Source: Alloprevotella sp.
GTDB lineage: Bacteria; Bacteroidota; Bacteroidia; Bacteroidales; Bacteroidaceae
Assembly (NCBI GenBank): GCA_963651485.1
Contig: CAVJPT010000002.1
Span: forward strand, 138,154-202,153
Reading direction: 5' to 3'
Length of the DNA stretch: 64,000 bases
How positions within the stretch are numbered: the first letter of the stretch is position 1; each line of letters starts with the position of its first letter. The notes below the pieces were generated by a model that worked only from the letters and a program-made list of their open reading frames with translations, was not told the DNA's origin and ran no database searches. The translations under genes and the position numbers were made by a program. Shown piece after piece: positions 8,420 to 44,645 of this stretch.

Positions 8420-8519
8420 GGGGGCAGTGCCGCGTGGCGAGTGGTTTTGAAAAAGTGCGAAAAATCTTTACAAATCTGCAGCCGTCTCTGGCGAAATTTT
8501 TATGAAAGTTTAAGGGTGC

Positions 8520-8748
8520 GGCTTGGGTGTTGTGGCCACTGAAAGGGGCTCCCGGGACACGGAAAGGGGCTTAGTGGAAACTAAGACCGGCCCCGTAGCG
8601 ACCAAGACCGGCTTAGTCGCTACGGGATGTACACTTTTCAGTCTTGTAAGTCGCTGATATTCAATAATGGAAAAGCGGGGATACGCAACCGTTGCGCATC
8701 CCCGCTTTTCCATACACAAAGATAATACATTTTTCTCCGTTTTCCAAA
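8520..8748 (-). repeat. Dispersed intergenic element, copy A (promoter + hairpin + IHF-like box + TGTACA + 21-bp repeats)
   Basis: 8624-8748 (reverse complement) aligns without gaps to 32631-32755, with about 16 mismatches in 125 nt by hand count. Palindrome at 8667-8713; 21-bp repeats at 8531-8635. Confidence 0.9.
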
Positions 8749-8958
8749 TCGGCTTCGGCGCTCGCCGGCGCGGCTGGACGGCTTAAAAGTGCGAAATTCC
8801 TTGACAAAACCCGTGCTTGACGTCTGCATATCCCAAACAGTTAGTCGTAAGACTTCGCTACCTGCCCCGCCGTTGGCATTGCGCCCGGATGCCTTATAAT
8901 ATATATGGCGTATGCGGCGAGGCGCACATCGTGCGGCGGGCGAGTGAAAGGTTTTTCG

Positions 8959-18826: not shown

Positions 18827-18956
18827 AAATAAAGTCAGCCAAAGCGTGCGGGCGTATAAGCTGGCCGTACTCCCAAGACGGCATTCCGCATCTTGAAACA
18901 GCCGTGAAAGGGCGGTACTTCCCGCTTCTTGCCGCAGTAATAAACGGTAACGGAGA

Positions 18957-19080
18957 ACTGGAAAACGGAAGAAATGCTTTGTCTCCGTATAGAAGAAGGC
19001 GGGGAGGCGCACTTATTGCGCTTCCCCGCTTTCGCATTATAGAGAATCAATGGCTTGCGATGGGGAAAGTGCGCAACCTG
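18957..19080 (+). repeat. Dispersed intergenic element, degenerate copy D
   Basis: GGAAAACGGA..AAATG start, hairpin at 18995-19033, AATCAATGGCTTG box at 19045-19057, GAAAGTG; collinear with copies A and B. The -7 box is decayed. Confidence 0.7.
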
Positions 19081-32446: not shown

Positions 32447-32630
32447 CAACAACGCGGCCATTATGCAGAACGGGAAAGCGGGTCACTTCGGGTATGTGCT
32501 TTCACTTGTGTCTCGTTCTCGCATTTTCCCATGCGTCCAAGCCCTCATACACCTTGTCCCGAGGGCGCGGAAAACCCCGAAAAATGGTCGCATTTCTTAT
32601 CCTCGAACATGCAAAAATGGTTAACGCCCG

Positions 32631-32822
32631 TTTGGAAAGCGGAGAAAAATGTATTATCTTTGTGTATGGAAAAGCGGGGATACGCAACGGTTGCGCATCC
32701 CCGCTTTCGTGTTGTTGAATATCAGCCACTTACGGAGTCGGAAAGTGTACATCCCCGCGCTCCGGGGTGTACATCCGGGAGCTACAGCCCCTATTCCCGT
32801 CGCTCCGGGGCCTATCCCTGCC
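32631..32822 (+). repeat. Dispersed intergenic element, copy B
   Basis: TTTG 32631, TATCTTTG 32655, palindrome 32671-32707, TATCAGCCACTTA 32720-32732, TGTACA hairpin 32746-32773, then 21-bp repeats. Confidence 0.9.
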
Positions 32823-32935
32823 GGAAAAAGGTGCTTTGCAGTGCGTCGGGAGTCTTTTTTGCGTTGGGCGAGGACGGGAGGTGCCGTTAATCTTTCCTAA
32901 AAATTTTATGCGGGGATTTTTCCCGGCGGGGCGGC

Positions 32936-44209: not shown

Positions 44210-44412
44210 TTTGCATTTCGCCTTTTTATTTCGTAACTTTGTGTAGCGAAAAGAGAGCAGATGCGGCGTTGCGTCTGCTCTCTTTTTGCCTGCATTGAAA
44301 ATCAGCAAGTTACGCTGTAGAAAAGTGTACATCCCGGAGCGCGGGGATGTACATGCCGTAGCTGCGGAGCCTATTCCCGTAGCTACGGAGCCCGGCTTAG
44401 TCCGCACAAAGT
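44210..44412 (+). repeat. Dispersed intergenic element, copy C
   Basis: TTTG 44210, TAACTTTG 44234, hairpin 44246-44289, AATCAGCAAGTTA 44300-44312, TGTACA hairpin 44326-44353, 21-bp repeats CCGTAGCT.CGGAGCC. Confidence 0.88.
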
Positions 44413-44645
44413 CTGTTTCGCTCTTTCCAGAGTGCTTTAGGGGAGCGCCCGGATGCTTTTCTGTAGTTAAAGATTCTTAAAGTTTTTGCCCTGTCCGCCG
44501 GCTTTTATGCAGAAAAACCTGCATAAGTATGCAAAGCGGCGGGACTGTGGCGTGGGGCGGCGGGCGGGTATTCGCAAATCCCTAAAAATAGGTAAAAACA
44601 CACATTCTTATATATAGCGGCTTCGGCGGGAACGGAAAAAGGGCT

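Follow-up and report, generated by a model that had tools for sequence, protein, structure and literature searches.

Dispersed extragenic repeats are common, and their function has been argued for decades. In enterobacteria, the BIME or RIP (REP-IHF-REP) elements are extragenic, number in the hundreds, stand at the 3' ends of transcription units and combine palindromes with an IHF site, and roles in termination, mRNA stability and nucleoid organisation have been proposed for them. REPs themselves are palindromes of 20-40 nt in alternating orientation, linked to RAYT transposases, while the Correia elements of Neisseria end in inverted repeats, go with a TA duplication and are found mainly upstream of genes. 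A further point of reference is given by Mu, Tn7 and Tn3, for which target immunity is known and whose immunity-conferring ends are inverted pairs that go with 5-bp duplications and depend on element-encoded proteins. For Correia elements, more than 100 copies per genome of about 2 Mb are moreover described, with strong promoters and an IHF-binding site, hairpins in their transcripts and an influence on neighbouring genes (PMC10969869). The BrickBuilt element of Porphyromonas gingivalis is described with 19 copies, tandem arrays that reach 22.8 repeats and 12-nt terminal inverted repeats of the IS5 type (PMC4596501), and naRNA4, an RNA derived from REP325, is described as acting with HU in nucleoid condensation (PMC4550694). 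The repeat family analysed here is, in its best reading by analogy with these systems, a lineage-specific, non-coding, extragenic family that appears as a composite of BIME/RIP-, Correia- and BrickBuilt-like features.

The starting point was a window of 64,000 nucleotides from an Alloprevotella sp. assembly (the focal genome: 2,317,901 bases, 37 contigs, 59% G+C), in which the initial annotation had described the same order of parts at four sites. All four copies are found as stated, and their sites are right; the limits were too short, the extents given by nhmmer being larger, and the whole unit measures about 330-390 bp. Copy B occupies 32567..32908 on the plus strand (C2:170720-171061 in contig coordinates, 292.9 bits, profile positions 13-346) and lacks the right-hand version of a motif, X, which was defined from the genome-wide copies and whose degenerate left-hand version can be read from the sequence at 32579..32602. 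The unit continues with a predicted Bacteroidetes-type promoter at 32631..32662 (TTTG at 32631-32634, a 20-nt spacer and TATCTTTG at 32655-32662) and with hairpin 1 at 32670..32707, in which an A-tract, a GC-rich stem and a short T-tract make a terminator-like arrangement on both strands. The conserved box TTGAATATCAGCCACTTAC at 32715..32733 comes next, its positions 32720-32732 fitting the IHF-type consensus WATCARNNNNTTR, and is followed by two TGTACAT sites (32746-32752 and 32768-32774), 22 nt apart from start to start. Imperfect repeats that recur about every 21-22 nt, detected as two-copy direct repeats at 22 and 43 nt, fill 32775..32885 and lead to the right-end box GTTAATCTTTCCTAAAAAT at 32886..32904, which is kept in both species compared below and in a third, more distant species.

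Copy A lies on the minus strand at 8463..8789 and is recovered by nhmmer in two segments (C2:146942-146769 and C2:146755-146616), with profile positions 210-244 deleted. Its predicted promoter is located at 8748-8717, the hairpin at 8710-8669, the box at 8664-8646, a single TGTACAT at 8633-8627 and the right-end box at 8514-8496. The gapless likeness reported for copies A and B is reproduced, at 89% identity over 125 nt, and both copies are indeed aimed at gene 3' ends, copy A at that of a FecCD permease gene and copy B at that of an M20 peptidase gene. According to Pfam, copy A stands after the FecCD permease gene and before a thioredoxin-like gene, and copy B between an MFS gene and the 3' end of the M20 peptidase gene, each being antisense to both neighbours. 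Copy C, at 44210..44502 on the plus strand (nhmmer 44228-44502; C2:182381-182655, 175.4 bits), represents a diverged subfamily with a different hairpin stem and is set, by Pfam assignment, in the divergent region upstream of rsfS-ftsH. The decayed copy D, at 18898..19071 on the plus strand (C2:157051-157224, 62.7 bits, profile positions 18-193), is placed by the same means between a CN-hydrolase gene and the S7/EF-G operon; it comprises the left half only and breaks off where the first TGTACAT would stand. The initial annotation missed the flanking parts of the unit, the IHF-consensus reading of the box and the even spacing of the copies.

The family is by no means confined to the window. A BLAST search with copy B gives 114 matches in the focal genome, and a profile built from 65 long copies gives 181 hits at E<0.001, those of 100 bits or less being mostly palindromic parts that match the other strand. 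Of the BLAST matches, 94 extend over 80 bp or more, and 97 of the profile hits exceed 100 bits, the limit that we used for a strong copy. Such a recurrence is far beyond chance and bears out the prediction of many more copies genome-wide; 97 copies correspond to about 1.4% of the genome. In the sister species G014, 78 copies are present in 1,069,068 fetched bases. As anticipated, no described Rfam family accounts for the element: the window has 0 matches at gathering scores, and in E-value mode copy B gives chance-level hits only, the best reaching 23.6 bits against a gathering score of 100.

The placement of the copies was analysed with crude gene calls (1560 genes covering 84% of the focal genome), according to which 0 of the 97 copies overlap a gene. 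Convergent genes flank 38 of the 97, compared to 161 convergent regions among 1430 intergenic regions. In tandem gene pairs, 24 copies run in the direction of both neighbours and 20 against it; nine are flanked by divergent genes, and six stand at contig ends. No association of copy orientation with GC skew or with the local gene-strand majority was found. The REP/BIME-type trait of an extragenic position, a high copy number and a bias to gene 3' ends is therefore present. The likeness to BIME/RIP elements extends to the combination of palindromes with a site that matches the IHF consensus; unlike these, each copy is a single ordered and oriented module of about 330-390 bp with its own predicted promoter, its downstream repeats are direct and not alternating palindromes, and a Y1 transposase is not found in the focal genome.

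From alignments of copies with their flanks, which set the unit length at about 330-390 bp, the unit is seen to begin with X, GTTAAY, promoter, hairpin 1, the box TTGAnTATCARnnnnTTAC and two TGTACAT sites, and to continue with degenerate 21-22-nt repeats, the tail box GTTAAAnTTTCATAAAAAT, about 25 variable GC-rich nucleotides and X again. Motif X is 20 nt long (GAAAAGTGTCCTATTTTTCC) and stands in direct orientation at both unit ends, with GTTAAY about 25 nt downstream of the left one. Its 17-nt core occurs 37 times in the focal genome when up to 2 mismatches are allowed, nearly always beside a copy. Beyond these limits, 29 full-length copies of G014 have no common flank, except for one pair over 38 nt; the possibility that the unit extends past the profile is ruled out by these unlike flanks.

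The sequence TTTG-N19-21-TAnnTTTG is the consensus described for the Bacteroidetes primary sigma factor (PMC7366714). Strict matches to it number 168 in the focal genome and 6 in a reversed-genome control, and 83 of the 168 are inside elements, all in the sense orientation. Among the 85 outside, 76 are intergenic and 58 have a co-oriented downstream gene, at a median distance of 75 nt. These downstream genes and the reversed-genome control indicate that the strict motif marks real promoters in the focal organism. The strict motif is present in 81 of 95 scored focal copies and in 49 of 73 copies of G014, and the -7 box alone in 90 of 95 and 69 of 73; judging from this match to the consensus, the element probably has a promoter of its own, as had been proposed.

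Hairpin 1 begins about 8 nt past the -7 box and has a stem of 14-19 bp. Compared to shuffled sequences, its folds in the window have z scores of -8.4 in copy A, -6.8 in copy D, -7.1 in copy C and -4.3 in copy B (sense strand); the antisense hairpin of copy B reaches -7.3, and the inverted repeat there spans 18 nt at 94%. The z score of copy C agrees with the remark that this copy has its own stem sequence and keeps the pairing. Covariation was analysed in an alignment of 89 sequences from two species, and supports the first hairpin: 13 of 17 pairs have changed on both sides, 88.9% of the cells are paired, against 28-62% in slid controls, and the covariation score was reached in 0 of 500 shuffles. 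In fact, the stems of orthologous copies are often unlike in sequence, yet fully paired. With an A-tract and a short T-tract around the stem, hairpin 1 resembles a two-way intrinsic terminator, and a simple terminator scan makes no call at this position because the T-run after the stem is short.

Downstream of the hairpin, the box agrees in register with the enterobacterial IHF consensus WATCARNNNNTTR (R at position 6) in 143 of 168 copies; if one mismatch is allowed, 164 of 168 agree. Its four variable columns coincide with the four N positions of that consensus. The printed form WATCAANNNNTTR, which has A instead of R at position 6, fits 66 of the 168 copies only. Matches to the consensus, again the enterobacterial one, number 83 inside and 44 outside elements in the focal genome. 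The family thus accounts for half of the best promoter matches and two thirds of the IHF-consensus matches of the genome in 1.4% of its DNA. Candidate proteins for such a site are encoded in the focal genome, where HU/IHF-family genes give five matches; four to six are found in all five genomes searched, and these genes are equally present in element-free genomes.

The two TGTACAT sites are unchanged in 87-89 of the 89 aligned copies and keep a fixed distance of 22 nt; from their sequence and pairing in the unit, they look like sites for a dimeric DNA-binding protein. TGTACA as a word that is generally avoided or enriched was considered and discarded, the observed/expected ratio being 1.05, with 185 sites inside elements and 438 outside. 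A second hairpin, proposed for this part of the unit, is not supported: it lacks covariation, and in 58 and 68 sequences of the 89 its inner pairs are not formed. The TGTACA pairs of this proposed helix 2 never vary in the 89 sequences, a pairing that is trivial because TGTACA is a palindrome. An alignment fold of the full transcript region, made with an alignment that is not structure-aware, recovers only part of hairpin 1. Regarding the 21-bp repeats reported for the same region, the direct repetition is found, weakly and in two copies at 21, 22 and 43 nt, and a tandem array is not; Tandem Repeats Finder has no result for copies A, B or C.

Since the period of the repeats is a multiple of 3, the family was also considered as one of small-protein genes, in which the 21-nt period would be a seven-codon repeat read from the (A/G)TG of a TGTACAT site. 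One frame is open over 34-74 codons in 52 of 86 focal copies. The same frame is, however, shut after 3-4 codons in 34 of the 86 and after 3 codons in 62 of 71 copies of G014, and the other frame is shut after 3-4 codons in 50 of the 86 focal copies and after 3 codons in 37 of the 71. With frames from the TGTACAT sites that are not conserved across copies, this candidate was rejected, and we consider it extremely improbable.

The comparison with the two elements that carry promoters places the family near both. Like BrickBuilt, it belongs to the order Bacteroidales, is always intergenic, includes promoter elements, has a limited host range and shows a leader-repeats-tail layout, with repeats of 21-22 nt where BrickBuilt is described with 23 nt (PMC4596501). 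Differences, as far as the description of BrickBuilt goes, are the about 100 copies found here, the weak two-copy repeats, the lack of terminal inverted repeats and the covarying hairpin directly after the promoter. With Correia elements it shares promoters, an IHF site (here a match to the consensus) and a similar copy number in a genome of similar size, and it differs from them in having no inverted ends, in its gene-3'-end bias and in a promoter that faces a terminator-like hairpin.

On the arrangement of these parts, we tentatively favour, with a confidence somewhat below even, a reading in which DNA of mobile origin would now be maintained by the host as a transcription stop and a site for architectural protein, by a mechanism that may be outlined as follows. 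The promoter would fire within about 8 nt into the hairpin of 14-19 bp, with its flanking A-tract and short T-tract, after which would come an IHF-type DNA-bending site and two TGTACAT sites lying on the same face of the helix. The family probably spread as non-autonomous mobile DNA and was later kept by the host; each copy might then serve both as a bidirectional transcription stop and as a landing pad for an HU/IHF-type protein and a TGTACA-binding dimer, and the promoter might yield a short hairpin RNA. The even spacing of the copies, discussed below, could reflect an architectural role or the manner in which copies are inserted.

The same promoter and hairpin can be viewed from the transcript. 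In a multicopy family of small-RNA genes, the transcript itself would be the product, acting in trans or as a protein sponge, either as a 5' hairpin RNA of about 45 nt or as an RNA of about 270 nt that extends to the tail box and the right X. Consistent with this are the strict consensus promoter, in the same register in most copies, the covariation of the hairpin and the distribution of G.U and U.G pairs, which number 275 on the promoter-sense strand and 96 on the antisense strand (161 of the 168 copies with both anchors). Indeed, the sense fold is the more stable one in 120 of the 161 copies, the less stable one in 40 and equal in 1. Copy B is an exception, its sense fold (-25.9 kcal/mol) being weaker than the antisense fold (-30.9 kcal/mol), in agreement with the A.C mismatch that had been singled out in its stem. 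REP-derived RNAs that are described as acting with HU (PMC4550694) offer a precedent. However, stem sequences differ freely between copies, which leaves no shared seed for base-pairing to a target, helix 2 fails covariation and no supported structure is found downstream of hairpin 1, where the best-conserved parts are motifs of DNA type, that is, palindromes and the IHF-type box. An RNA product also leaves the spacing and the gene-3'-end bias unexplained, and we regard it as a rather improbable main function.

The mobile origin assumed in the favoured reading leads to a stronger alternative, namely that the family is purely selfish DNA, transposable but non-autonomous. Its copies would be moved in trans by a transposase or recombinase that is missing from the metagenome assemblies, a kind of assembly in which insertion sequences are often absent. 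The IHF-type site, together with the phased 21-22-bp repeats, would be the end to which the transposase binds, and the copies would guard about 8 kb from new insertions by target immunity, so that saturation would bring about an even spacing. The family is indeed small, non-coding and multicopy (97 copies of about 330-390 bp, with no conserved open frame), a trait of MITEs. On the other hand, the usual marks of transposition are not found. In 130 of the 168 copies with both anchors, the best 16-nt complementarity between the left and right ends of one copy is 9.72, against 9.69 for ends taken from different copies and 9.19 for shuffled sequence, and inverted-repeat scans of three copies show only internal palindromes and one non-recurring pair. 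A comparison of filled and empty states at nine sites reveals no clean junction and no target duplication, with 491-1256 bp of unaligned sequence in the filled site (491-643 in 8 of 9) facing 23-177 bp of the empty one; with no clean empty site recovered, the argument for mobility is made by presence and absence of copies. The left and right X motifs differ by 3.43 mismatches within a copy and by 3.58 between copies (n=23) and, being no more alike within a copy, indicate that X belongs to the unit and is not a target duplication. TTAA or X as a target duplication is ruled out by the junction comparisons and these mismatch counts.

The search for a mobilising enzyme gives a similar picture. The Y1 transposase family (PF01797) has no match in the focal genome or in a further element-bearing genome, G153; in G014, the single gene of this family stands between 99-nt inverted repeats that belong to an unrelated repeat. 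A link to RAYT is ruled out, the Y1 gene being absent from the focal genome and, in G014, placed beside another repeat family. PF00665 (rve), the DDE transposase family covered by the search, has no match in the focal genome, G014 or G153. Tyrosine recombinases number only two in the focal genome, and each is of a type that element-free genomes have as well. Among the profile hits, no copy is split by a large insert such as an autonomous partner would make. The linked transposase that might have been expected was thus found neither beside the copies nor in the rve and Y1 searches of the focal assembly, and the REP/MITE-like class suggested at first finds no support, as it was worded, in a family without terminal inverted repeats or target-site duplication and with no RAYT/IS200 gene in the focal assembly. 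The absence of rve from three element-bearing assemblies and of Y1 from two, the recombinases of shared types and the 0 of 9 clean junctions speak against purely selfish DNA, and so does the age of the copies, which are about 65-69% identical pairwise and are retained at orthologous sites, as described next.

The flanking genes of G014 are 85-92% identical to those of the focal genome. Among the 25 focal copies whose flanks can be mapped collinearly, 23 have a copy at the same site in G014 and 2 do not, the flanks of the shared-site copies being 87.6% identical between the species. Conversely, of 44 classifiable copies of G014, 23 are shared and 21 are absent from the focal genome. Insertion polymorphism between related genomes is therefore present, with 21 of 44 and 2 of 25 copies being one-sided, at junctions that are not clean. 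Both X motifs are kept in 14 of the 21 copies found in G014 only, compared to 7 of the 23 shared ones, and this, like the number of extra copies, is what a selfish element would lead one to expect.

Contrary to their flanks, orthologous copies are only 57-66% identical (12 pairs). In the 23 ortholog pairs, the box columns are 78.8% identical and the other columns 50.5%. A trace of common descent remains in the latter, considering that the non-box identity of non-orthologous cross-species pairs is 47.8% and that the ortholog value was reached in 1 of 2000 permutations. Within a genome, paralogs are 57.3% identical in non-box columns in the focal species and 59.2% in G014, above the 50.5% of orthologs, and each genome has variants of its own in the X motif, in the context of the first TGTACAT and in the first repeat. 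This likeness within genomes, also compatible with selfish spread, together with genome-specific variants, is concerted evolution or turnover at fixed sites: the same sites are held across species while the sequence is homogenised within each genome. The conservation of boxes and the species-specific variants could accordingly result from gene conversion or turnover rather than from selection on each site.

A striking property of the family is the regularity with which copies follow one another. The focal genome has 71 within-contig gaps with a mean of 22.1 kb and a CV of 0.42, of which 1 is shorter than 8 kb, against a mean of 26.0 under random placement; when copies were placed at random 2000 times among 1113 intergenic sites, the CV averaged 0.97 and never fell below 0.69. 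In G014, 69 gaps average 13.45 kb (SD 4.3 kb, CV 0.32, range 5.8-28.7 kb), and 3 of them are below 8 kb. Uniform placement on the same contigs, repeated 5000 times, gives 33.2 such gaps on average and never fewer than 20, with a mean CV of 0.96 and a lowest one of 0.67. Because missed copies can only lengthen gaps, the scarcity of short ones is robust. There is, clearly, an exclusion zone of about 8 kb between copies. We know of no dispersed extragenic repeat that is evenly spaced along a chromosome; in the literature searched, no report of even spacing of extragenic repeats, REPs included, was found, an absence that is not proof. In G153, at least 18 within-contig gaps among the matches listed measure 10.8-25.9 kb with incomplete detection, and in genome G096, likewise with incomplete detection, 8 gaps of 8.1-44 kb are obtained from 26 matches; the evidence for even spacing was drawn from the focal genome and G014 only.

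The gap distribution of G014 is reproduced by a car-parking simulation in which copies exclude one another over 8-9 kb and permissive sites occur every 2.5 kb: the simulated mean gaps are 12.3-13.8 kb, with a CV of 0.27 and a 5-95% range of 8.3-20.6 kb, and the values of G014 set against them are 13.5 kb, 0.32 and 8.1-20.1 kb. Within the terms of this model, the spacing is reproduced by pure exclusion and saturation and would need no function. The result suits a selfish element with target immunity, and so does the finding that gap size is independent of the relative orientation of neighbours, which is evidence against selection directed solely at deletions between direct repeats. As in immunity-conferring transposon ends, phased sites of about 22 bp stand beside an IHF/HU-type site and nearby copies are excluded; unlike in Mu, Tn7 and Tn3, no inverted pairs, 5-bp duplications or rve transposase were found here. 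Weighing this against the old and retained copies, we take purely selfish DNA as a possible but somewhat unlikely explanation.

A different interpretation of the same gaps is that the copies are chromosome-organising units, self-spacing modules that would cut the chromosome into segments of about 13 kb, the exclusion over about 8 kb being then a selected property. The modules would act as boundaries of transcription or supercoiling, or as loop anchors, by means of an HU/IHF-type protein and a dimer bound to TGTACA, together with hairpin RNA transcribed on the spot; we judge this to be unlikely. Two explanations of the spacing remain: target immunity that shapes a whole chromosome, or a repeat that was recruited to organise the nucleoid. 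A clade that bears the element would make either of them directly testable.

The element is restricted to few genomes. At the DNA level, strong matches are found only in G014, and the family is met in 2 of 41 relatives and, across the genus, in 6 of 148 genomes, the focal genome being counted in both. A covariance model that covered the promoter, hairpin, box and TGTACAT sites (19 candidates scored per genome, strict filters) detects diverged relatives, at E up to 1e-4, in 24 of the 148 genus genomes. Among 150 other genomes of the family, 6 of them from further species of the genus and 144 from 34 other genera, it detects none; five genomes that were searched singly with this model have 16-77 matches each. 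G153 retains the promoter, hairpin, box and tail box around a different middle part that lacks TGTACAT. This patchy presence within one genus can be added to the points in favour of selfish spread, as can the matches in the third species, which begin within a few tens of bases of many contig starts. The family breaks short-read assemblies of gut- and rumen-type Bacteroidales and marks points of rearrangement between species. The locus of copy B is itself rearranged in G014, where it is kept only up to the -7 box and continues into unrelated sequence. Plasmid and phage collections have no match to the family; three viral contigs match the promoter part only. A pattern scan of a contig collection gave at least 76 stretches, which, among the matches listed, are all in two records.

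Comparison of the Alloprevotella genome with that of G014, a sister species whose flanking genes are 85–92% identical, evidences that synteny ends exactly at copy B of the intergenic element (window 32567–32908, + strand; extracted stretches L045:1400-1600 and L040:1380-1500). At L045:1400-1600, where G014 carries the ortholog of the left flank of copy B, the left part of the element is retained up to the −7 box and is then followed by unrelated sequence, while the right-hand gene is located on a different contig, where it adjoins a degenerate promoter-like remnant. This break in synteny suggests that element copies may be rearrangement points. A truncated form is found in copy D (window 18898–19071, + strand), upstream of the operon encoding ribosomal protein S7 and EF-G; this copy has lost all sequence from the first TGTACAT site onward and has an intact hairpin and a degraded promoter-like part.

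The Alloprevotella genome has two Xer-type tyrosine recombinase genes, and one of them (C5:135273-135788) directly adjoins an element copy (C5:135922-136143). The best-matching counterpart of this gene in G014 (C11:21240-21755) appears to have an element copy close by as well, as judged from positions in a record presumed to be the same assembly. Only one conserved locus is concerned, and the adjacency could be due to chance.

Outside the window, the Alloprevotella genome contains a second repeat family, which is unrelated to the element. Its units are short hairpins such as GGGCTGAAAGCCC, and it forms tandem arrays with a period of 79–269 bp, several of them adjoining element copies. This family was located at C13:48749-49444, C19:23374-24958, C21:19126-19754, C1:51049-52263 and C2:205765-206542, as well as in an extracted stretch at L193:1302-1400 and L193:1867-1965. 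In G014, second-family sequence is present as 99-nt inverted repeats (83% complementary) flanking the sole Y1-transposase gene, an arrangement resembling that of a RAYT gene and its associated REPs. Near-perfect tandem arrays with a period of 63–65 bp, up to 6.3 copies and 98–99% matches are also found in the Alloprevotella genome (C23:15125-15539, C3:223192-223592 and C27:12170-13103), one of the three being immediately downstream of an element copy.

Among the 76 pattern-scan matches listed (L064-L139), 74 belong to a record labelled as an uncultured Oscillospiraceae bacterium. These stretches carry Bacteroidetes-type promoters together with the element, a Bacteroidales repeat, and therefore the taxonomic label of this record may be wrong.
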